Shown: one piece after another, positions 12,536-24,000 of the stretch
Position numbering within the stretch: position 1 is the stretch's first letter
How the letters are laid out: each line of letters opens with the position of its first letter
Source: an uncultured Gammaproteobacteria bacterium
GTDB lineage: Bacteria; Pseudomonadota; Gammaproteobacteria; Pseudomonadales; Ketobacteraceae
Reading direction: 5' to 3'
Length of the DNA stretch: 24,000 bases
Assembly: GCA_913063495.1 (NCBI GenBank)
Contig: CAJXXT010000016.1
Location: 2,977 to 26,976 of the forward strand
Made by a program: the position numbers and the translations under genes
Notes under the pieces: generated by a model
The model's database searches: none
The model's input: only the letters and a program-made list of their open reading frames with translations
What the model was told of the DNA's origin: nothing

Positions 12536-14557
12536 ATGATGAAATTTAAAACGGGAATAATACTCGCAAGCTCAATCTTGCTTACCGCATGTGGTGGTGG
12601 CGGAGGCGGAGGAGGTGGATCAACAACAGCACAACTTAACAATAACGAGACCCCTACTACTCCAGAAACACCTTCAGCCAGAATTCAAGTGTCAGCTCAA
12701 AATGGGGAGATGTCCTTACAGTGGCCTGAAACCGAAGTGAACGGGAACACCGCTGAATGCTACAGAGTATCGGTAAGAGGAAACGAAAACGAAAACTACC
12801 AAGAAGTAGAAAGTTGCCTAGAAAACGCGTCATTTACGACCAAACTTAGCGTGATACACACCGATATAGCCGGAATAAGTTATTTGATAGAAGCTTGCGA
12901 CAACACCGGTGCCTGTGAAGAGATTGACAATGTTACGCTGGAAAATGAAAAAGAAAATTTGGTAGAGAAAATCCCCCTCCCATCAGTACCAGGGCTTGAA
13001 GAGTTTGGCTACCGTACCTACCTGTACACCCCTAACGGGTCATACGTTAGAGCATCATTTGAGGCTGATCAACTTAACCATATTCTATCAGAGGATGAAT
13101 CTACGCTAGTTTACCTTTTAAACCATGATTCCTCAACTGGAACAGGTGTGTATGCAGACCCCACACAAGGCAGGAGCATAGATAACGCTACAGATCAAGC
13201 TCTAGCCAAATCGGGTGCAATCCTTGTAACTAAAAAACAAGGTAACGAATGGGTTTTTGACACCTTCATTAAACCACCTACCCTTGAAAACTCTCCATTT
13301 GTGAGGCGCGTATATCACGCTGGCAAGAACTGGAGTAACCTTATAGATAGCTTTCCAGACGGTTTAAAACTTAGCACAGATGGCAACTCCATCGCGGTTA
13401 CACTGCCTGAGTGCGGCGAAATAGAAGTACCCCGCCCCCAAGTATCTTTCGAATGCATACTATCCATTGTGACTTATAAAAGGAAAGATGGGGTCTGGGA
13501 GCTAACAGAAAAAATCAGAATAGCAGATTCAAGAGATGATGCTTATCTCACAGGAAGCCCCTTCCTTTATGCGGAGGAAACTATTGTTATGAGCGGTGAT
13601 GGAAAGACCATACTATTTGATCAGAAAAGGCCTGAACTTAGACCGTACTTTACCGGTATTGTAAATTACCCCTACCCAGACCAATTTAATGGGCACCTTA
13701 TAGAATCAAGTTATTCTGAAAACTACACACCAATCGTTTCGCGAAGATCAGTGGCCGAAGTACTTAACTTTGACGACCCCATCAATGGCTGGACCATTCA
13801 GGCAAGCATAAGACCAGCTCACGATGGGCTTCACCCATCTTACAGAAAGCTTAGCTACGATGGCAGCCTAATAATAGGTTTGGATCGCGGAATCCAACCC
13901 GACACTTTTCATACATTTAAACGAAACAACAACGTCTATCCTCCAATTTGGGAGAAAATTGATTCACCCCCATTCAATTACGTAGGCATAGGTATAGGTT
14001 CCCTTGTAACCAATATTTCGGGTTCAAGCGTGATGTATAACATCAATGGTGATGGAACAATTCAACACCCGATTTTTAAAATAATCGATGGTGTCTACAC
14101 TCCCGACGGAGAGCTTCCCCAACTAACGATCAATAACAAACCTTTTGCATATCCAGGAGAAATTTCGCCAAGCCTTCTCCCAGGCAATGAAAGTGACTAT
14201 GAGATGATAATAAATTCAACTGGTGACGAAATACTTGTCCTAGCAGGAGAAGGTTTTAACACTGGCTCAGAAGTGGAAATACAGATAAGCCGAGAATATA
14301 AAGGGTATGTGAAAATGGACGAGCTAATGTTTAACAACATACACCACATTGAAGATGCCTTTGATAACTCAATTGAAGGTGGGAACAGCACCGGCTATTA
14401 TTTACATTTCAAAAAAGAGAATGCTGAATGGGGGCTTATTGGCCTGATCGCACTTCCAGATCGTAATCCTAACTGGTACACTCATCGGCTTGGCGCTGGA
14501 ATGCCAGTTCAATTTTTAGAGGATGGAATCCTTGTAACTGGAAACATCTATAGATAA
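12536..14557 (+). CDS. Large lipoprotein with poly-Gly tether, FN3-like N-domain and degenerate FG-GAP-like beta-propeller repeats
   Basis: 673 aa. Lipobox LLTAC is followed by G9S. Recurrent blade-like motifs are LSEDESTLVYL, LSTDGNSIAVT, MSGDGKTILFD, LSYDGSLIIGL and NSTGDEILVLAGEG. Each is followed by a g.W....i segment (GNEWVFDTFIKP, DGVWELTEKIRI, NGWTIQASIRP, NAEWGLIGLIALP). Confidence 0.6.
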   Translation: MMKFKTGIILASSILLTACGGGGGGGGGSTTAQLNNNETPTTPETPSARIQVSAQNGEMSLQWPETEVNGNTAECYRVSVRGNENENYQEVESCLENASFTTKLSVIHTDIAGISYLIEACDNTGACEEIDNVTLENEKENLVEKIPLPSVPGLEEFGYRTYLYTPNGSYVRASFEADQLNHILSEDESTLVYLLNHDSSTGTGVYADPTQGRSIDNATDQALAKSGAILVTKKQGNEWVFDTFIKPPTLENSPFVRRVYHAGKNWSNLIDSFPDGLKLSTDGNSIAVTLPECGEIEVPRPQVSFECILSIVTYKRKDGVWELTEKIRIADSRDDAYLTGSPFLYAEETIVMSGDGKTILFDQKRPELRPYFTGIVNYPYPDQFNGHLIESSYSENYTPIVSRRSVAEVLNFDDPINGWTIQASIRPAHDGLHPSYRKLSYDGSLIIGLDRGIQPDTFHTFKRNNNVYPPIWEKIDSPPFNYVGIGIGSLVTNISGSSVMYNINGDGTIQHPIFKIIDGVYTPDGELPQLTINNKPFAYPGEISPSLLPGNESDYEMIINSTGDEILVLAGEGFNTGSEVEIQISREYKGYVKMDELMFNNIHHIEDAFDNSIEGGNSTGYYLHFKKENAEWGLIGLIALPDRNPNWYTHRLGAGMPVQFLEDGILVTGNIYR

Positions 14558-14745
14558 TCAACAAAGAAGTACCAGCTCCGCTTGCAACATAGTGGGGCTG
14601 ATACCTTATCTACAATATAAAGCCAGCACCCCTACCAGTTACAACAAAAATAACTCTTTCTTTTCAGTAACGTATTTTTGTTTTATCTTTGCGGTTACCA
14701 ATCAACATCGATGGCTTTGAATGTAATTGGAGCTGCTGCACTTTC

Positions 14746-14771
14746 ACAAAAGGGTCTCCAATTGAAGACCC
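14746..14771 (-). terminator. Rho-independent terminator at the end of the pilus-like operon
   Basis: The minus strand reads GGGTCTTCAATTGGAGACCC followed by TTTTGTG. It lies 37 nt after the stop at 14808. Confidence 0.6.
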
Positions 14772-14807
14772 TAATTATGAAGCATTGAACCGTACTTAAT
14801 TAGGTGC

Positions 14808-15803
14808 TCATTCCTCCGGAAGCTTACAATACAACGCCATCGTAAGGGTTGCATCATGACCACCACAGGAAGTTAGGTCTTCTCTCTTTATATTATCTGC
14901 ACCATCATTCTTTTTACAATCCCAAGTAATCGCACCAGTCTCTTCATTTTCTTTAGAAGTGCATTTTTTATGTATTGATTGTAACCGGAACGTCCAAGCA
15001 ACATCAGTTCCTTCATCCGTATCTTCACGTACATCAAACCCTACAACTTCCTTCCACGTCTTACCGTTATCTTTTAACTTTGCTTTTTTAGCAGCACAGG
15101 TCAACGATGAAGTAATCGCATAACCAGCCTCTTTCCCTTCCTCGCATACTGGCTTGAGTATTGTTGTTTTATATTGCCCGCCTTCAACTTCAACATCAAC
15201 TTCATCAGCACAATACCAATACCAGCCCCACCAAGACCATTTCCATTTTGCACACTCTTTATCAGTATCTTCCGCATAATTAAACATAGGTACTATTGTG
15301 AATGCTCGATTTCCATAGGTGTCAACAAAAGAACGTACAGTCGCCCAATCACCGTTTGTAGAAAGCAACGAGCCTCTGTCCAATGAATCTACAATAAAAG
15401 GCACCCACTTTTTTGGAACATCCTGGGTAACCGCGTATACACCGCCACTGTCCTCACAAGAAAAAAACAGCTCTTTTCCCCAACCATTCACCAAGTCATC
15501 TGATGCTGTCATATACACACCATCAAAACCTATAATTTCTTTACCTGCCCCCCCTCCTTCAGCATTAGATGTAGCATTTGCAGATACACAGCCATCATCA
15601 TAAGGCCAGCCCCCACTAACCCGAGAAAACTCGTAAGCAGCATTAATCACATCATAGGTTCTTGCAATCGATAACGCTGCGGCACGCTGGTCACTGAATA
15701 TTTTACTCGGTGCAAACAACACCGCTGACAACATACTGAGAGACGTCACAACAACCAAAAGCTGAATCAATGTGAATCCACGACTAAACCGCTCTACATT
15801 CAT
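14808..15803 (-). CDS. Large minor prepilin-like protein lacking Glu5 (GspK-like position and size), Cys- and Trp-rich
   Basis: 331 aa. Prepilin signal MNVERFSRG|FTLIQLLVVVTSL has Gln, not Glu, at mature position 5. It has 10 Cys, the motif KWKWSWWGWYWYC (15210-15248) and a C-terminal ...ALYCKLPEE. It is the last gene of the operon. Confidence 0.75.
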   Translation of the reverse strand: MNVERFSRGFTLIQLLVVVTSLSMLSAVLFAPSKIFSDQRAAALSIARTYDVINAAYEFSRVSGGWPYDDGCVSANATSNAEGGGAGKEIIGFDGVYMTASDDLVNGWGKELFFSCEDSGGVYAVTQDVPKKWVPFIVDSLDRGSLLSTNGDWATVRSFVDTYGNRAFTIVPMFNYAEDTDKECAKWKWSWWGWYWYCADEVDVEVEGGQYKTTILKPVCEEGKEAGYAITSSLTCAAKKAKLKDNGKTWKEVVGFDVREDTDEGTDVAWTFRLQSIHKKCTSKENEETGAITWDCKKNDGADNIKREDLTSCGGHDATLTMALYCKLPEE

Positions 15804-15810
15804 CAGTTAA

Positions 15811-16611
15811 TCACTCACAGTACACAATATAGTCAAAACGAAGTTCATTACATCCATTCCCACTAGAAAACTCATCAGGAGCATCAGCATAACTAACTTC
15901 TAACTTAGCATTCCAATGCTCCACATCATCAATTTCTGTGTCTGTCACGTTAACCCTGTATCCACCAAGGTGCTTGGGATTAAATATACCCTCCGCGCCC
16001 TCTGGGTCAGATTTAACACACACACTTTTTATCATTGTGCTTAGCCTTGGTCGACGACATGCGGGTTTTTCAATATCGGAGTCTAAGATTCCATCGACAG
16101 AACCTGATTCAATTAACTGAGCCACCCTTGGTTTCGGAATATATAATTTAACCTTACTGTCAGATATTGATGCTGAAGGTAATAATGAAGCCACCCATCG
16201 GGCCCGCTCTTTTTCTTTATCAGTAGCAATCGCCCCACTCTTAAAATCATATTCAATGATTAAAACAGGCGTTCGCCCCCTTAATTGCAGGCAAGAAAAC
16301 ACATATTTATCTTCATTTCTAATTTCAGCAAAGTACCCACCAGCCTTTAAAACAGTAAACCCATCTGAACAGGATGTTGTACCATCCACGACCTCTTCTT
16401 CCCCTGGCCAAACGCCATCAATATTCTGTACATAAGCTCTAGTGGAATTGCTTAACGTCATAAATTCAGAAACATGAAAATCCACCAATTTTTCTTCTGT
16501 ATGAGCTAGAAACATTTGAGAAAAAAACACAACGGAAGCAACAAGCAGCGCTGAAACCACCATCATTTCTACTAAGGTAAAACCACGAGACCTATTTGAA
16601 TACATATTCAT
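15811..16611 (-). CDS. Minor prepilin-like protein (about 266 aa) with Cys-rich C-terminal module
   Basis: Prepilin signal MNMYSNRSRG|FTLVEMMVVSALLV. ATG at 16611 is preferred to the TTG at 16623. It has 6 Cys and ends YIVYCE. Its N-terminal globular part is paralogous to that of the 331-aa protein (GxWP...C...F(S)C...(R/K)WV). Confidence 0.75.
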   Translation of the reverse strand: MNMYSNRSRGFTLVEMMVVSALLVASVVFFSQMFLAHTEEKLVDFHVSEFMTLSNSTRAYVQNIDGVWPGEEEVVDGTTSCSDGFTVLKAGGYFAEIRNEDKYVFSCLQLRGRTPVLIIEYDFKSGAIATDKEKERARWVASLLPSASISDSKVKLYIPKPRVAQLIESGSVDGILDSDIEKPACRRPRLSTMIKSVCVKSDPEGAEGIFNPKHLGGYRVNVTDTEIDDVEHWNAKLEVSYADAPDEFSSGNGCNELRFDYIVYCE

Positions 16612-16626
16612 AAAGACTACCAAATA

Positions 16627-17112
16627 TTAAAATTGCTGCTTAGCAGCCATAGAGGGGAATAAACTATACTGAGAAGAGATCGCATATTTTTTACGCGGAT
16701 AAAAAGTCAATACTGACTGTAAATTGTCGTCTGTACCAACAGTGCTACTACTCGCGCCTAAAAAACGCCACTGGCCTTCTGGGGTACTTAACATCAACGT
16801 TAACTGAGAGACGCTACTTCCTGTTACACCCTCAATATAATTACAGCTAACACCCGTATTTTTACACAGAATCTGGATATCATTTTTTGTAAATTCGTCC
16901 GTCAAAGAGTATTCGCGATTAAAATCCAAGGCATTAACGATATTTTGCGCCTCCTCACTGTATGCAGTAAGCTCTAAAATCCTAGCTTGTTCCCGAATAT
17001 CACCATAAAAGATGACGGAGAGTGTAACCATAAGAGATATAACAATTAACAGCTCTACTAGCGTAAATCCCTTATATTTCGAATGAGTTTTCGTAATAAC
17101 TGGCCTATACAT
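16627..17112 (-). CDS. Minor prepilin-like protein (161 aa)
   Basis: Prepilin signal MYRPVITKTHSKYKG|FTLVELLIVISLMV with Glu5. A closely spaced Cys pair is present (ILCKNTGVSCNY). Confidence 0.75.
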   Translation of the reverse strand: MYRPVITKTHSKYKGFTLVELLIVISLMVTLSVIFYGDIREQARILELTAYSEEAQNIVNALDFNREYSLTDEFTKNDIQILCKNTGVSCNYIEGVTGSSVSQLTLMLSTPEGQWRFLGASSSTVGTDDNLQSVLTFYPRKKYAISSQYSLFPSMAAKQQF

Positions 17113-17126
17113 TACAATCAGCCCTA

Positions 17127-18293
17127 TTAATTAAATCCACCGCCAGAAGCGGCACCTGCAAGCGGCAAATAGAACCCCAATACAGCAGCTAACACAGATG
17201 CCAGCATTAAAATAAACCCTACTCGGGACAATGCTTTTGATACCCTGCGGGAAGCATGAATATTTTGTAATTGCATTGTTGACTCCATTGCCTCAAGAAT
17301 ACGCGCCTGCTCCGAATCATCTACCTCAGATATAACAGACATCCCATCTCGAATGGTCGGATCCCAGTCCTCTTCATCTAGTGCATCCGCCAAACCTTCC
17401 GAAGAGGCCAATCTCGCATAAATACGTCCGTATATATCCCTATTCTCCCCTTTAGAGGACGACAATAGCTCATAGATTATCTCTGTATCCACAAAACCCG
17501 ACTGTCTCAACATTCTATATATCGATAAAAACTGAGTTCCTCTATCAAGCAACCTCTTTTGATGGAAAAGCGAAAAAAAAGGTAGCCCTTTAACCAGTCG
17601 CCACAAAATTTTCCTATAAAAGACTAAGAATGGGAGCAGAATAAATGGGGCATAACCATAATTTCTCAACAAATCACCAAGACCAACTAATGCTAACGTA
17701 AAATTATTTGGTTTTAAGTGCATTGCTCCATCCATCATGCTTTGAATGGTTTCACCAATAAACAAGGGCACTAAAATAAAGAATGCAAGACCTAGTACGA
17801 TATACGTAATGCCTAACCTTAACTCTGCACTAACATCCGTACTGATTTTTTCTCTATTTAGTAAGTATTTTGATGCTTCTCGTAAGGCCTCAGAATAACG
17901 ACCATTTTTCTCCGCAGCTCTAGCCATAAGAATAGAAAACTTATCAAAATGAAAAGCTCTTAAATAGTCTGACAAACTTTCACAATTATCTAATTTTTCT
18001 TGCTTTGGCTTTAACCACTGACTGCTTTTTAGCAAAGTAGATATACCTTGATGTACAGTGCGCCCAGAAGCGAGCGCACTGCTTAACGTCTGCATAAACA
18101 CAGCTTGATTCTTTGCATCTGGCGCTGAAGACTCTAATACTGTTGCCAAACGGCCCACAATATCTTCCCGAACAGCGGTAATACGCCGTTCAGGAATTTT
18201 CGAATTCCAACGCGCTTCTTCTTTATTGCTTGCCTCTACTTTTAAAGAAGCAAGCTCACCGCGAGAATCAAGATAGTTTACGACGTAAATCAT
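17127..18293 (-). CDS. Type IV filament platform protein (GspF/PilC family)
   Basis: 388 aa. Two repeats of a cytoplasmic helical domain are each followed by TM segments (TYIVLGLAFFILVPLFIG; APFILLPFLVF; GFILMLASVLAAVLGFYLPL). It sits adjacent to the pilin and ATPase genes. Confidence 0.8.
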   Translation of the reverse strand: MIYVVNYLDSRGELASLKVEASNKEEARWNSKIPERRITAVREDIVGRLATVLESSAPDAKNQAVFMQTLSSALASGRTVHQGISTLLKSSQWLKPKQEKLDNCESLSDYLRAFHFDKFSILMARAAEKNGRYSEALREASKYLLNREKISTDVSAELRLGITYIVLGLAFFILVPLFIGETIQSMMDGAMHLKPNNFTLALVGLGDLLRNYGYAPFILLPFLVFYRKILWRLVKGLPFFSLFHQKRLLDRGTQFLSIYRMLRQSGFVDTEIIYELLSSSKGENRDIYGRIYARLASSEGLADALDEEDWDPTIRDGMSVISEVDDSEQARILEAMESTMQLQNIHASRRVSKALSRVGFILMLASVLAAVLGFYLPLAGAASGGGFN

Positions 18294-18307
18294 TCAGATA
18301 TACCTGA

Positions 18308-18847
18308 TTATGAACAGTGGTAAGTGACGATAACCACATCACTCGCAGAATTATAGTCTGTGACTGTATCAATTTGAGGTTTGCCTGTTACATTTTTAAT
18401 GATATCTCGTGCTGCCTGAGTGGGATTATCCGACCCTGTAGTGGGTATTGATACTGTTAACAATCGAGTTGTATCAGTATACGTTACTGACCAATAATCA
18501 TCCCAAGGCGTTTTCTGATATAACCCTCTCTCTACCAAGTTTTTCTTTGCGGCTGTTGCTACTGGATTTTCTGTTCCCGCTCCCGCTGCCGCAGGGTAAG
18601 TCGCACCTGAGGCTGTGTATTCAGTGGCGTCGTCGATAAGCGCGCATGAACCAAAATTCCTGGCTTTATACGAACTAGCCGCCTTAGGAATGCTACCCAA
18701 AATAAACGCTGTCGTCATAGCGACTTTGGCGTCATCATTCGACTGTCCTAATTCTACAGTAATATACACAACCAATAGCGCCACAAGTGATACTACAGTG
18801 ATCAATTCAACCAGTGTAAAACCAGCCTGTCTCTTTTGTATTTTCAT
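18308..18847 (-). CDS. Major prepilin (type IV pilin-like, 179 aa)
   Basis: Short leader MKIQKRQAG|FTLVELITVVSLVALLVVY with G-1, F+1 and E+5. Two Cys (FGSCAL and the C-terminal YHCS) suggest a large disulfide-bounded region. A 91-nt spacer lies upstream, with a GGGTG RBS. Confidence 0.85.
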   Translation of the reverse strand: MKIQKRQAGFTLVELITVVSLVALLVVYITVELGQSNDDAKVAMTTAFILGSIPKAASSYKARNFGSCALIDDATEYTASGATYPAAAGAGTENPVATAAKKNLVERGLYQKTPWDDYWSVTYTDTTRLLTVSIPTTGSDNPTQAARDIIKNVTGKPQIDTVTDYNSASDVVIVTYHCS

Positions 18848-18938
18848 ATTTCACCCTTATATTTTAAATTAAAATTCATTCCTAAAAAAAGACACCAATA
18901 GCGCAAGAAAAATGCACATTTTATATGTATTTTTCCCA

Positions 18939-20723
18939 CTAACCTTCAGCCAACAATACTTCATTATCAGAAAATGTAGCCTCGTCATTATTAGAGGCCA
19001 GACAACCCACCTTCTTTAATGAATTCAACGCCCTGCGACTGACATCTAGTGGGTTAATTTTCATCTCTAGACCTTCCAATGTGGTAACACCTTTTTTTGC
19101 AAGGCGAATGCCATCATCCCAAAGATCTAAAAAGTCACCTTCTACTTGCTGTGACAGCTTAATATGCACAGCGCCAACACCTTGAGTTATTAGCTTTTCA
19201 GTCTTCTCATCATTAACAAAAACTTCATTTACAATATGCCTCCCTAGGTAGCCATAACTGCAAAGCTCACAACCTTCAACCCTTGCGACATAGGGAACCT
19301 TTACCGTAGCTGGCATTAACGTTTCTACCGATTGGTATTTATCCCAAAGGGAGTCACGCTTTGAAATATGAACACTGGATGAGCAGTGGGGACACACTCT
19401 ATTCACTAAACGCTGGGCCGTAACGGCTAATAGATTTTCCGCTAACAACGCATCATCCACACCAAGGTTTCGCAACCGATTGATAGCGCCGTGCGCATCA
19501 TTAGTATGCAATGTTGTAAGCACCAAATGCCCTGTCATTGAAGCCCTCAGTGCCAATTCTGCAGTTTCAGCATCTCTTATCTCGCCAATCATGATAACGT
19601 CAGGGTCATGACGTAGCAGCGATTTTAACGCCATTGCAAACCCCATATGCTTAGACACTTCCAAAGCCGTTATTCCATCAAGTTGATCTTCAACGGGATC
19701 TTCAATCGTATAAATAGCTTTCTCTGGAAACTGATCTCGTATATCGCGAAGCACTGACTTTAAGGTTGTAGATTTCCCACTCCCGGTTGGCCCAGTAACA
19801 ATAATCATTCCACTAGAACGCCGCCCCACACCGCGCAATATATCAACATGGGATTTCGATAAACCCAGCTGATCTAAACGGCCAACACCCCGCATATTAT
19901 TGAGTATTCGAACGGTAAATTTTGGTTTCACTTGCGTAAACACTTTTACCGGAGCCATCTCCAGTCGCATGCTTACTTGTTTATGTGCAGCCTGGAATAC
20001 CAAATAACCACTACAAGGTTCCAAATAATTATTTTGTTTGCTCACCCGCTCCATAAGATTATTTGCAACAAGCTTAAATTGCTCATTTGTGATCGTTTGC
20101 AGCCCTGGAATATTAGAGACTTGGCAGCGGCCATCAATACGTAACCGTATCACACCACCGTGTGATTCTGGGTTTATATGAATATCACTGGATTTTCTAT
20201 TAATTGCCTCATTTAGTAGATCATCTACAAATTCTTTTGCCCAAGCACCACTGGTTTCTTTACTATTAAAAGCAACATCGTAGTTTGCCTGTACTACAAT
20301 ATCTGATTCAAAATCAGACATTGCCAAAATCCCCAATTTAGAGAATTGAATTTTATCTCTGCTGTCTTTTTTTCGCCGAATTAATGGCTCGATCTGGCTT
20401 CGGTCATAAGGATTCGTTACATACAAAACATCATCGGCAATTAGCCAAGGGCATTTATCATGCGTACTTCGAACCAACGTGTCGCGATTAACAATACTTC
20501 CAGAAAAAATATCACTCTTGTATATATCCGCCAATACTGCTGCAAGCTTTTCGTCATCAACCCCTTGTTCCCACAACCGAGGAACAATCTCCTCCGCTGA
20601 GGCAGGCAAAGCCATACTATGGGAAATTTTTTCCGAAATAACCCCATGCTCCACCAATTTCTCTTGGATTTTTTCAAACTGAATAGCTAGGCGATTTTTT
20701 GTATTTTCGGTAATTTTTGACAC
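18939..20723 (-). CDS. Type IV filament assembly ATPase (GspE/PilB/MshE family)
   Basis: 594 aa. Walker A GPTGSGKST at 19767-19793. Asp/Walker B region DPDVIMIGEIRD. His box TGHLVLTTLHTND. Tetracysteine CPHC...CELC Zn motif. The N-terminal region is T2SSE_N-like (KLVEHGVISEKISHSMAL...LWEQGVDDEKLAAVLADIY). GTG start. Confidence 0.9.
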   Translation of the reverse strand: MSKITENTKNRLAIQFEKIQEKLVEHGVISEKISHSMALPASAEEIVPRLWEQGVDDEKLAAVLADIYKSDIFSGSIVNRDTLVRSTHDKCPWLIADDVLYVTNPYDRSQIEPLIRRKKDSRDKIQFSKLGILAMSDFESDIVVQANYDVAFNSKETSGAWAKEFVDDLLNEAINRKSSDIHINPESHGGVIRLRIDGRCQVSNIPGLQTITNEQFKLVANNLMERVSKQNNYLEPCSGYLVFQAAHKQVSMRLEMAPVKVFTQVKPKFTVRILNNMRGVGRLDQLGLSKSHVDILRGVGRRSSGMIIVTGPTGSGKSTTLKSVLRDIRDQFPEKAIYTIEDPVEDQLDGITALEVSKHMGFAMALKSLLRHDPDVIMIGEIRDAETAELALRASMTGHLVLTTLHTNDAHGAINRLRNLGVDDALLAENLLAVTAQRLVNRVCPHCSSSVHISKRDSLWDKYQSVETLMPATVKVPYVARVEGCELCSYGYLGRHIVNEVFVNDEKTEKLITQGVGAVHIKLSQQVEGDFLDLWDDGIRLAKKGVTTLEGLEMKINPLDVSRRALNSLKKVGCLASNNDEATFSDNEVLLAEG

Positions 20724-20768
20724 TGAGTAACCTATTTCTATTGGAGGTAAACCTTAAAACGACCCAAT

Positions 20769-21281
20769 TTAATCCCAACTGAACCCGACTTGATAAATCA
20801 CACCTTCTTTCTCTAGTTTAGCGCCATTCACGGTACTTACTGCCAGCACTCTATACCCTCCAGGAAGATAACCACCCTCTTTCGCCTCAACATTCCCTGA
20901 TGCCGTTTTAAATGACGCTTGATTACCGTTAATTCTTTTCAAAATAGGAAGTGTTATTTTTGCGCCTTCTGCCGCGCTATTCCTATTACTTACCACAGGA
21001 GAACTTGCTTCGGTTGGCTTTTCATTATTTCCGACATTAAATCCCATAGAATCCATATCACCAGGAACAAAGCCTCCAGACTCCTTGAATGCTTGATAAG
21101 ATTTCGCAATCTTCGCACGCTGCTCTATCAATTTGGCTTGATACTGCAAATCTTGTAATTCTCGCGCTCTTGCTGCCTCTCGCTTCAATACAGAAGCGCC
21201 ATCTTCAGGCCCAGCTACTACAACAGTGTTCATTCCCAAGCACCCAATAATGAGTGCTCCCAACATAGTTGATTTTTTCAT
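20769..21281 (-). CDS. Periplasmic or lipoprotein accessory protein, PilP / GspC-HR-like (tentative)
   Basis: 170 aa. Signal peptide with a possible lipobox (ALIIGC). A coiled segment (QDLQYQAKLIEQRAKIAKSY) is followed by a C-terminal beta-rich region NGNQASFKTASGNVEAKEGGYLPGGYRVLAVSTVNGAKLEKEGVIYQVGF. The function is inferred from topology and operon position. Confidence 0.45.
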   Translation of the reverse strand: MKKSTMLGALIIGCLGMNTVVVAGPEDGASVLKREAARARELQDLQYQAKLIEQRAKIAKSYQAFKESGGFVPGDMDSMGFNVGNNEKPTEASSPVVSNRNSAAEGAKITLPILKRINGNQASFKTASGNVEAKEGGYLPGGYRVLAVSTVNGAKLEKEGVIYQVGFSWD

Positions 21282-21324
21282 TATGATTCCTACTTTCCGC
21301 CGATGATTAGACTTTATCTATTAT

Positions 21325-21795
21325 TTATTCACTACCTAATACAGAAAATCGTATCGTGGCATTCTTTTCTCGTAAGTTGATACCATACAGAAATGCAGGT
21401 ACCGCACTTTGTATTTCTTTAGCAGATACCAACACTGCACCTACACTTCCCTTTAGGTCAGCCGTCCAGGACGCTAACGGCCCGTTATAACTATCTTTTG
21501 AGTTTTTATTGGAAACGAGAGAAACATCAACGCCATATTGATCTGCTATCGCCGTCACATAACGCCATTGGTTTTTGACCGGAGGTAACACCTCCATTTG
21601 GGCCAATCTCTCTGCCTGAGTGTTATATACTTTAATGTCCTCCTCAATAATCTCTACATCTGCAAACGCGGCTTTGTTAACCCGTACGACCTGGCGCTTA
21701 TATATCTGGTGAGAAGTAAGGAATATAACAAGAAACATGACAGCCCAATGAGACCAATCCCATTGAGAAAGAAACCCTGGAAGATTAACTTTCAT
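21325..21795 (-). CDS. Bitopic inner-membrane accessory protein, PilO/GspM-like (tentative)
   Basis: 156 aa. Short cytoplasmic N-terminus, one TM (WAVMFLVIFLTS), a coiled coil, then a small periplasmic alpha/beta-like domain. Overlaps the upstream gene by 11 nt. AGGAAAA RBS. Confidence 0.5.
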   Translation of the reverse strand: MKVNLPGFLSQWDWSHWAVMFLVIFLTSHQIYKRQVVRVNKAAFADVEIIEEDIKVYNTQAERLAQMEVLPPVKNQWRYVTAIADQYGVDVSLVSNKNSKDSYNGPLASWTADLKGSVGAVLVSAKEIQSAVPAFLYGINLREKNATIRFSVLGSE

Positions 21796-22669
21796 TATTT
21801 TTTTTCCTAATACTTAATATCCATTCACCTTTTGGGTCATACTCAGAGGTCACCCAAGAATAATTTTGAGCAGGGTTAACTCCCACATCAGGAACAACAA
21901 AGACTAACTTCTCCCTCTGTAAACTTTGTCCAGGCAATGTCGCTAACTTTGGATTAACCGCCCACACTGCGGCAATGCTCTCGATCATCCGTGCATCATT
22001 CGGAACATCTGTTAGGCGCGTTGTTTTTAATTTATCCAAACCTGATTGAATAACCTGCAATAACTCAGCCTTACTTTCTGCTTGTTCTGTCTCCAGCGCA
22101 TATATTTTGGTTAAACCAACATCTGTCACAAGCCCTAAAACCACACACAAGGTCACTACTGAAATCAAACTACTCCAGGTCTTCCTCACAACTTCCTTAC
22201 GTTGAGTCAATAATTCTGCCGCCAACTTAGCTTCAGTATCCGGCAATACAAGTTGATCAATCTCTGGGTTCAGTTCTGCTGCCTCGTCAAGGTTAAAACT
22301 TGCGTCCGCAGCGAAGAATCCAGCTTCGTAATCCCCTGAAAACTCAGCCCTCCCCAAATCACAATGTATATAGTAGCCATCTTGAGGGGTTATTTTTACT
22401 ACCTGCAACGCCTTTCGATATGACACTAATCCACTATTAATTAATGTATGCCACATTCCGAATACACGAGTATCTGGATAAGACTCTCGAATATCTTCTA
22501 TATCAGTCTCTCGAATATGAATTGCAGGACAGTTATTCGTAGCCGGTGCTAGTTCTACATATTGATGTTGCTCACTTAGCGGAACCGGCCCAACAATATC
22601 AGGAATAAAAACAATATCTTCGCCTAAAATACGAACTGGCCGACGCAGGTATTCCGAAAAATCTGACAC
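21785..22669 (-). CDS. Bitopic inner-membrane accessory protein, GspL/BfpC/PilM-N-like (tentative)
   Basis: 294 aa. A cytoplasmic domain of about 165 aa, one TM (WSSLISVVTLCVVLGLVTDVGL), a coiled coil, then a periplasmic domain of about 90 aa. The GTG start lies 1 nt after the secretin stop. Confidence 0.5.
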   Translation of the reverse strand: MSDFSEYLRRPVRILGEDIVFIPDIVGPVPLSEQHQYVELAPATNNCPAIHIRETDIEDIRESYPDTRVFGMWHTLINSGLVSYRKALQVVKITPQDGYYIHCDLGRAEFSGDYEAGFFAADASFNLDEAAELNPEIDQLVLPDTEAKLAAELLTQRKEVVRKTWSSLISVVTLCVVLGLVTDVGLTKIYALETEQAESKAELLQVIQSGLDKLKTTRLTDVPNDARMIESIAAVWAVNPKLATLPGQSLQREKLVFVVPDVGVNPAQNYSWVTSEYDPKGEWILSIRKKNNES

Positions 22670-22670
22670 G

Positions 22671-24000
22671 TTACGCCCCTTCCAATATTGTGGGCGTCAC
22701 TGTTAACACTAACTCTCTTCGTTCAACACCTTGAGTTTCATTGCCGAAAATAGGCTTGAGTATTGCACCTGTTAGCTTTTCCCTCCAAGGTAATTCCTCC
22801 AATTTTTTCGCTATCGCCCTTCGGATAAACCCACCTAGTTGAATGGGTTTTCCTGACTCTGCAATCACCTGGGTAGAGAGTTCCTGCAGTGCAATTCGCG
22901 GAACAACTTGCGCTTCACCTTCAATTTCAAACACATCACTGCCATCCATAGAACTCACTACAGGCCATATATCCAAAAGAATTCTACCATCGGATAATAT
23001 TCGTGGTGTTACCGAAAGCGTAACTCCAACTCGCACAGACTCTAATGTTTTCTCAACGCGACGATTAACCACCCCTTCAGGCGTTACTCCATCAGCACCG
23101 GTAACTTCTATTTTCCCAATATAAGTCGACTCTTCACCACTTGATATATAGGCATATCCTCCATTTCTAACAGTAACATTCGGCTGATTCAGTAATTCAA
23201 CCTCACCAAATTTACTCAAAAAGTTAAGGATAAAGCCTGCATTTACTTTACTCGAAGAATATGATCCAGCGCCCTGAAACAAAGTATTCGTTGAATCAAA
23301 AATACCATTCTTAACGGTTTGAAATCCAAAATTCAGAGGGTTCCCATTAAACGACCCATTTACCGATGCTAACTGATCCCAATCAATACCTGCTCCACGA
23401 TCATCATTAAGTGTTACGTCATAGGCCTTAACTGAAATATTAATTTGTTTTGATCCCGACTCTGCTATAGATGAAATAAATTCATCAACAGCCTTCATTC
23501 GCTGCGGAGCCCCTCCTGCACTGATAGTTCCCACCGATCGTACAGCTTGTATATATGGAGATACTCTTGTTGCAGATGTCACTTCCGAGCCTCCGTCTTG
23601 AACATTTAGTATACGCTTTGCACCGTCAACAATGGCTAGCCACTCATCATCATTAAATACCGTAGATATCTCATTAGTCGTAGAAGCTCCACCACCAGAC
23701 TTAGATGAACGCAGCGGTCTACCTACGGTAAGGCGTACATCTCGTTTGGAGGAAAACATAGCCAAATTCCATTGCTTATCGACAAAAGAACGTATTTCTA
23801 CTTTTCCATTATTTAGACTTATTTCATAACCACTTAGCGATGACAAGTATTCGAGGTAATCTTTTACGTACATGTCCTTAGCAATCATATTGAGCGTCTT
23901 TGACAAATCAATATTCGAATCTTTTGGTATAATACTGTTATTGGGTAATTTCAATCTCAATGCATCGACTAATGAGACGGATCCAACAAAACTCACCTTT
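22671..24000 (-). CDS. Secretin (GspD/PilQ/T4b-secretin family), N-terminus beyond the window end
   Basis: The C-terminal secretin core is present (LNQPNVTVRNGGYAYISSGEE...VGVTLSVTPRILSDGRILLDIWPVVS...RELVLTVTPTILEG). An N0-like segment lies near the window edge (SLVDALRLKL...YLEYLSSLSGYEISLNNGKVEIRS). The track's GTG at 23996 is probably not the true start, since no signal peptide is visible. Confidence 0.85.
   Translation of the reverse strand, partial: KVSFVGSVSLVDALRLKLPNNSIIPKDSNIDLSKTLNMIAKDMYVKDYLEYLSSLSGYEISLNNGKVEIRSFVDKQWNLAMFSSKRDVRLTVGRPLRSSKSGGGASTTNEISTVFNDDEWLAIVDGAKRILNVQDGGSEVTSATRVSPYIQAVRSVGTISAGGAPQRMKAVDEFISSIAESGSKQINISVKAYDVTLNDDRGAGIDWDQLASVNGSFNGNPLNFGFQTVKNGIFDSTNTLFQGAGSYSSSKVNAGFILNFLSKFGEVELLNQPNVTVRNGGYAYISSGEESTYIGKIEVTGADGVTPEGVVNRRVEKTLESVRVGVTLSVTPRILSDGRILLDIWPVVSSMDGSDVFEIEGEAQVVPRIALQELSTQVIAESGKPIQLGGFIRRAIAKKLEELPWREKLTGAILKPIFGNETQGVERRELVLTVTPTILEGA

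Follow-up and report, generated by a model that had tools for sequence, protein, structure and literature searches.

Why would the last pilin of a filament-assembly operon dispense with the glutamate that is usual in pilins, and what could a loop packed with tryptophan do in such a protein? Both questions are raised by the terminal minor prepilin gene of the window analysed here, a stretch of 24,000 nucleotides from an uncultured gammaproteobacterium of the family Ketobacteraceae. The gene occupies positions 14808..15803 and is the last in its operon. An open reading frame had been assigned to this place without mention of the strand; the frame is real and encodes 331 amino acids plus a stop codon, but it lies on the minus strand (ORF list, translation).

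The product carries a class III signal. A short basic leader peptide, MNVERFSRG (M1-G9; 15777..15803, minus strand), ends in Gly; Phe at +1 and some 20 hydrophobic residues come next (MNVERFSRG followed by FTLIQLLVVVTSLSMLSAVLFAP); judged from the sequence, cleavage would take place before F10. The nine-residue leader would be removed by a prepilin peptidase; the genome encodes such an enzyme (PF01478, 100.6 bits) outside the operon, on a separate contig, C280. In translation, the mature protein starts with FTLIQLLVVV, in agreement with the FTLIQ terminus named in the original prediction, and GFTLVE is indeed found in the major pilin and in the 161-aa and 270-aa minor pilins. Neither Pfam nor NCBIfam holds a family for the 331-aa protein; the Pfam N_methyl model stayed below threshold and the GspG model gave a weak match to its N terminus only. 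A sequence search of the PDB with the family profile returned pilin N termini alone (prepilin helix and start of the globular domain), and the N terminus of PilE was matched with E = 0.002. In the AlphaFold2 model a long α1 helix is packed on an antiparallel β-sheet, as in pilins, whereas Glu at mature position 5, another mark of pilins, is replaced by Gln. The gene lies inside a filament-assembly operon, and we consider it almost certain that a type IV filament has the 331-aa protein as one of its minor pilins.

This operon comprises ten co-directional genes, of which the gene for the 331-aa pilin is the tenth (ORF list, Pfam, NCBIfam). It encodes a secretin, for which the MSHA-type MshL is the best model, two unrecognised proteins (294 aa, 156 aa), a PilP-family protein, a GspE/PilB-type ATPase, which is the sole ATPase of the operon and scores best with the GspE model, the major pilin (18308-18847; 179 aa, with the GFTLVE start in translation), a T2SSF-type platform protein and three minor pilins. 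At 37 nt past the stop codon of the last gene there is an intrinsic-terminator-like hairpin, GGGUCUUC-AAUU-GGAGACCC, followed by UUUUGUG (14745..14771, minus strand). The 46-nt stretch that contains it (14740-14785) has a fold energy of -20.3 kcal/mol (z = -5.4); a consensus scan did not call the hairpin because its T-run is short. Of 28 genomes from the same taxonomic family, 17 have the operon, each in a single copy; elsewhere in the order it occurs sporadically. A locus search seeded with five sequences led to one congeneric genome only, and among the congeners the operon is carried by the MAG 'Gammaproteobacteria bacterium 42_54_T18'.

In the relatives that were read, a flagellar block fliK-fliL-fliM-fliN-fliP stands beside the filament operon (locus L010, 13237-19055), and it lies downstream of the operon in the metagenomic loci L035 and L038. 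In the latter two, about 880 bp (L035 8536-9416, L038 5849-6729) run from the gene for the 270-aa-type pilin to the fliK-like gene without an ORF of at least 100 aa on that strand. The cap pilin may be missing or decayed in these two operons.

The original prediction took the missing glutamate as a sign of a subunit that caps the filament tip, and the comparison of relatives speaks for this reading. Gln at mature position 5 is residue 14 of the precursor and is encoded by 15762..15764 on the minus strand. Searches with profiles in a word-indexed protein library yielded three to four sequences each; the family alignment comprised 16 members (A2), a realignment 26, and position 5 was counted over 30 distinct members of the terminal-pilin family. 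Among these it is His in nine, Glu in nine, Gln in three, Tyr in three, Trp in two and Ile, Asn, Asp and Phe in one each. Since nine of the 30, two congeners among them, keep Glu5, its loss reflects a relaxed constraint and not a fixed feature. Glu5 is found in all 19 members of the family of the adjacent 270-aa pilin, which is a paralogue, and also in every small minor pilin of the loci that were read. Tip complexes are capped by a subunit without Glu5, and no subunit above it needs to have its N terminus neutralised (PMC10191384, PMC9934059). The relaxed position 5 together with this rule from the literature is good comparative support for the 331-aa pilin as the cap, and judged from these sequence comparisons it is quite probably the cap subunit of the filament.

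The 331-aa pilin would then be the first subunit to be assembled. Its hydrophobic α1 helix would anchor it in the filament core, and with nothing above it, Glu5, which normally neutralises the N terminus of the subunit above, would be dispensable and could be replaced by Gln. The 161-aa, 270-aa and 331-aa pilins probably form a three-subunit tip complex. The 161-aa pilin (16627..17112, minus strand), which has Glu5, matches N_methyl and TIGR02532 and keeps its position in the operon, is the likely third member. In a genome of another family of the same order (G435), five matches to the terminal-pilin profile were seen in frames of 293-445 aa on two contigs (C72 and C87), which suggests a local expansion of the terminal-pilin family there.

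How does this subunit compare with caps already described? It shares with GspK and PilK of type II secretion systems and type IVa pili that it is encoded by the last gene of the minor-pilin block, that it is the largest minor pilin (~330 aa) and that Glu5 is absent, and both would be expected to cap a small minor-pilin complex that primes assembly. In GspK, a helical domain is inserted within the pilin fold. The model of the 331-aa pilin shows instead a putative C-terminal, β-rich appendage (pLDDT < 50), and in the alignment the extra part follows the pilin module; moreover, its partner is its own paralogue, and the loss of Glu5 is not fixed among its orthologues. With E values up to 1 allowed, the T2SSK and NCBIfam GspK models matched neither the 331-aa pilin nor any of 16 members of its family. 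A GspK homologue was rejected on the grounds that there is no match to T2SSK or any other Pfam model and that the extra module appears to be appended and not inserted, so the implied kinship with GspK did not hold up.

A second likeness is to Streptococcus sanguinis, in which the modular pilins PilB and PilC and the Glu5-less PilA are proposed to assemble into a complex at the tip and to present adhesive modules there (PMC9934059, PMC8179133). Both are three-gene minor-pilin sets with two members that have extra C-terminal modules and one that lacks Glu5. However, in the operon studied here the Glu5-less subunit is itself modular, its module belongs to no recognised family (neither vWA nor lectin), and the host is a diderm with a secretin. 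The type IVb proteins TcpB and CofB also have a pilin domain followed by C-terminal β-rich domains, and their systems likewise manage with few minor pilins and one ATPase. TcpB is described as relying on its own Glu5 (PMC5207764), and CofB appears in the cited review as a tip-located trimer. These systems have a single minor pilin where the present operon has three different ones, and the PDB search with the terminal-pilin family profile revealed no sequence similarity to TcpB or CofB.

Inspection of the 331-aa protein revealed two modules joined by a linker. The pilin module (residues 10-175; 15279..15776, minus strand) is made up of the α1 helix and a four-stranded sheet and contains the cysteine pair C72-C116 (AlphaFold2, alignments). 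The acidic linker YAEDTDKE (residues 176-183; 15255..15278, minus strand), recognised by its composition, has an equivalent of variable length in relatives that is acidic in several of them. The Trp loop follows, and then a Cys-stapled, charged, β-rich C-terminal module (residues 199-331; 14811..15209, minus strand), which opens with the acidic stretch ADEVDVEVEGG. As had been described, this part is rich in cysteine and charged: its 133 residues include 6 Cys, 27 Asp/Glu and 19 Lys/Arg. Some 20 distant relatives align to residues 7-170 only, and the C-terminal module aligns separately with the 270-aa family.

The closest counterpart of this build is the neighbouring 270-aa minor pilin (15811..16623, minus strand). 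An alignment of the two families with hhalign gave a probability of 99.4 % (E = 9.5e-22, 207 columns) and spans the pilin module and the C-terminal module up to residue 276, with the common motifs KPxC...C...G(F/Y)R...W. Since the match runs through both modules, the 331-aa and 270-aa pilins are paralogues that share one architecture. As far as can be told from this alignment, the C-terminal module is common to both and has not been swapped. The idea that it is unique to the 331-aa pilin, and thus special to it as the original prediction had it, was rejected, since the 270-aa family has it too. For the module itself no match was found with Pfam, in the PDB or with Foldseek, so that it could not be traced to a domain grafted from outside the pilins. 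In a search of 1.84 billion proteins, residues 180-331 were matched by P0002 alone, a metagenomic protein encoded on a 3.3-kb contig of a public run. This protein, 60 % identical, is the one close relative found in libraries of 5.8 and 1.84 billion proteins.

Ten cysteines had been counted in the 331-aa protein, and ten there are, at residues 72, 116, 184, 198, 220, 236, 281, 296, 313 and 326. In the alignments of 16 and 26 members the pair C72-C116 of the pilin module is conserved and is lost jointly in one clade; in the C-terminal module the pair C220-C236 is conserved, together with a terminal pair in which C326 goes with C313 or C296, depending on the alignment. C184 and C198 were gained jointly, just as C72 and C116 were lost jointly, and this pattern of gain and loss fits the proposed pairing of the cysteines in disulfides. 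A second extra pair in the C-terminal region is confined to the window protein and P0002, as is the pair C184/C198.

Between the linker and the C-terminal module lies the Cys-bracketed Trp loop, CAKWKWSWWGWYWYC (residues 184-198; 15210..15254, minus strand), with six Trp and two Tyr. The aromatic cluster had been placed at 15210-15248, which corresponds to KWKWSWWGWYWYC (residues 186-198); the position and the two Tyr are correct, but there are six Trp and not seven. Such a density is indeed unusual. With Trp making up 1.25 % of the residues of the genome, about 0.013 segments of 13 residues with at least six Trp would be expected in all frames of at least 100 aa, and the segment in the 331-aa pilin, the densest Trp cluster of the genome, is the sole one in the 5.8-Mb assembly. 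The next-best segments have five Trp and are located in hydrophobic, possibly membrane-spanning stretches or in repeats. On another contig of the same genome (C34), a 166-aa open frame contains a perfect WID-WID-WID-WID-WID repeat, which is probably a tandem repeat in the DNA read in one frame. A low-complexity or frameshift artefact was considered for the Trp motif and rejected: its DNA is non-repetitive, and the homologue preserves the motif while differing at other codons.

The loop is rare also among its relatives. The segment C184-AKWKWSWWGWYWY-C198 is confined to the window protein and P0002 and is a gap in all other aligned members; it is an insertion when compared with 14 further members of the family or with the family of the paralogous 270-aa pilin (alignment, hhalign). 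The Trp motif is thus no feature of the family, as might have been assumed, but a lineage-specific insertion in two of about 30 members. A scan of metagenomes via the platform protein covered 14 loci and brought up no further copy of the Trp loop. A search of 400 genomes of the class with the DNA pattern for WxWxWWxWxW retrieved TGG/GGT repeats at a rate equal to that of the reversed control. The loop is real and rare, with two sequences known to carry it.

Modelling was informative for the pilin module in particular. AlphaFold2 reached a mean pLDDT of 33.7 with a two-sequence alignment and of 52 with 13 sequences. In the pilin module, a helix (residues 12-63) and four strands (111-116, 122-130, 145-150 and 153-161) were predicted, with pLDDT 78-91 over residues 110-160. 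Residues 164-216, which include the Trp loop, had pLDDT 27-30, and the two runs differ in secondary structure there; in the 13-sequence run the C-terminal module for the most part scored under 50. Foldseek with the 13-sequence model gave nothing meaningful in the PDB (best E = 0.014, TM-score < 0.15), and a PDB sequence search with a 32-residue segment around the loop returned no match.

The spacing of the tryptophans is nevertheless that of a familiar peptide. Trpzip2, SWTWENGKWTWK, has the same WxW-x4-WxW pattern, in which W187, W189, W194 and W196 correspond to W2, W4, W9 and W11, and all four are kept in P0002; the segment is short and could form a hairpin. Until now, the tryptophan zipper has been mainly a motif of designed peptides. 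The loop differs from trpzip2 in that it is natural and part of a protein, that two more Trp (W191-W192) stand at the putative turn and that the putative disulfide C184-C198 is one residue off the ideal register. In this lineage, then, the acidic linker between the modules has gained a loop of 15 residues that would be closed by a disulfide between C184 and C198. We propose that it folds into a β-hairpin of the tryptophan-zipper type, with W187, W189, W194 and W196 interlocking on one face and W191-W192 at the turn. The resulting rigid aromatic 'finger' would project from the tip complex and could bind an apolar target or one rich in sugar rings; candidates are polysaccharides such as chitin, interfaces of lipid or of oil and water, and protein partners.

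Is such a finger exposed? Between the window protein and P0002, 10 of the 15 loop residues are identical (both Cys, the six Trp, S190 and Y197), and the five changes (A to S, K to D, K to D, G to R, Y to E) turn the net charge from +2 to -2. A flip of charge at the non-Trp positions is what would be expected of exposed positions that make no contacts. In addition, the loop has acidic flanks, with Asp or Glu at four of the eight positions before it (YAEDTDKE) and at five of the 11 after it (ADEVDVEVEGG). However, with two carriers only, the conservation of the loop amounts to one data point. Furthermore, the observations do not place the cluster at the distal end, as had been considered: the loop is found where the two modules meet and not at the C-terminal end, and it may thus face a partner subunit instead of the solvent.

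This position is the starting point of a different explanation, in which the loop is a structural clasp, a hydrophobic plug on the pilin module, on the C-terminal module or on the 270-aa subunit that stabilises the tip complex. Tryptophan is usually buried or interfacial, and beyond the six of the loop all 13 Trp of the 331-aa protein are kept between the window protein and P0002. The 270-aa and 161-aa partners have also diverged equally fast (34-35 % identity between congeners), so that interfaces would have to co-evolve. Against a plug speaks the arrangement of the six Trp and two Tyr, which alternate on both faces of a loop of 15 residues and would be hard to bury in full; the strongly acidic flanks and the charge-flipping non-Trp positions suggest exposure to the solvent, and about 28 relatives assemble without the loop. 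Taken together, the acidic flanks and the charge flip favour exposure, whereas the position at the junction and the sample of two sequences keep the clasp alive as a reading that we regard as rather unlikely. That the Trp loop is an exposed binding element is a possibility we hold tentatively, at somewhat less than an even chance.

The composition of the loop also recalls indolicidin, the bovine Trp-rich antimicrobial peptide ILPWKWPWWPWRR, which has a comparable Trp density. The core of the loop, WKWSWWGW, is identical to WKWPWWPW of indolicidin at six of eight positions (PMC4457802), in which the WKWxWWxW pattern is apparent. A loop of this kind could act as an interfacial peptide that dips into the headgroups of a host, prey or vesicle membrane. 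Tryptophan prefers membrane interfaces, which would be in line with such a role. But the loop is devoid of Pro, would be closed by a disulfide and not extended, and resides within a 331-aa pilin, and its cationic character is not conserved: both Lys are Asp in P0002, whose loop has a net charge of -2 as opposed to +2 in the window protein. The likeness is a short motif match without homology and certainly convergent, and insertion into a membrane appears highly improbable to us.

The finger on an adhesive tip was also weighed against a role in secretion. If the operon encoded a machine like a type II secretion system, the 331-aa pilin would cap a periplasmic pseudopilus, and the Trp loop would contact cargo or the secretin gate. 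In order and in product size (161, 270 and 331 aa) the genes resemble GspI-J-K, the one without Glu5 standing last, and the single ATPase with GspE as its best model fits as well. Potential cargo is encoded nearby. A lipoprotein of about 580-700 aa, in which the lipobox Cys is followed by 5-9 Gly, directly adjoins the terminal minor pilin in the window (12536-14557, plus strand) and in locus L001 (1522-3288, minus strand), convergent to the pilin gene in both. In three loci of another genus, lipoproteins of this type with a differing protein sequence are co-directional (L032 9282-11396; L033 5815-7926 and 7965-9710; L034 9350-11416). The filament may have the poly-Gly lipoprotein as its cargo or as a partner. 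Near the operon there is also a gene for an exported lipase class 2-like protein, a second candidate for cargo.

Other observations argue against a pseudopilus. None of the minor pilins reached the cut-offs of the GspH, GspI, GspJ or GspK models, the secretin is best described by the MSHA-type MshL, and in the window the lipoprotein gene converges on the operon without being co-transcribed with it. Furthermore, the major pilin and the three minor pilins diverge en bloc between the two congeners. In a comparison of the window (14808-23996) with L010 (934-9907), the machinery is 60-83 % identical and all four pilins are 34-37 % identical. GspG is strongly conserved, unlike the major pilin here, which at 37 % against 60-83 % for the machinery behaves in a way typical of exposed pili. 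The low identity of the pilins relative to the machinery fits surface-exposed fibre proteins and counts against a periplasmic pseudopilus, and we consider a secretion cap improbable.

Altogether, the locus would encode a two-module cap pilin of a rare type IV filament whose inter-module linker has gained a disulfide-closed and probably hairpin-shaped aromatic finger, and for this reading as a whole we see the chances as evenly poised. The further step, to a natural tryptophan-zipper hairpin that is stapled by a disulfide, was inserted into the linker recently in the manner of a cassette and anchors the tip to an apolar or carbohydrate surface, is rather doubtful.

It is the minor pilins at the tip that decide which targets a type IV pilus adheres to or exports, and so far only a handful of such subunits have been characterised. 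The 331-aa and 270-aa pilins represent an undescribed family of two-module minor pilins that comes as a paralogous pair, one always with Glu5 and the other free to lose it, and the comparison of the two cleanly supports the rule that a cap can do without Glu5. In addition, the loop is a rare case of a new surface element inserted into the linker of a pilin. If it were a mere internal clasp, it would be a curiosity of one lineage; if it is a natural tryptophan zipper, it would offer protein designers a minimal stable binding element and microbiologists a new adhesion device.
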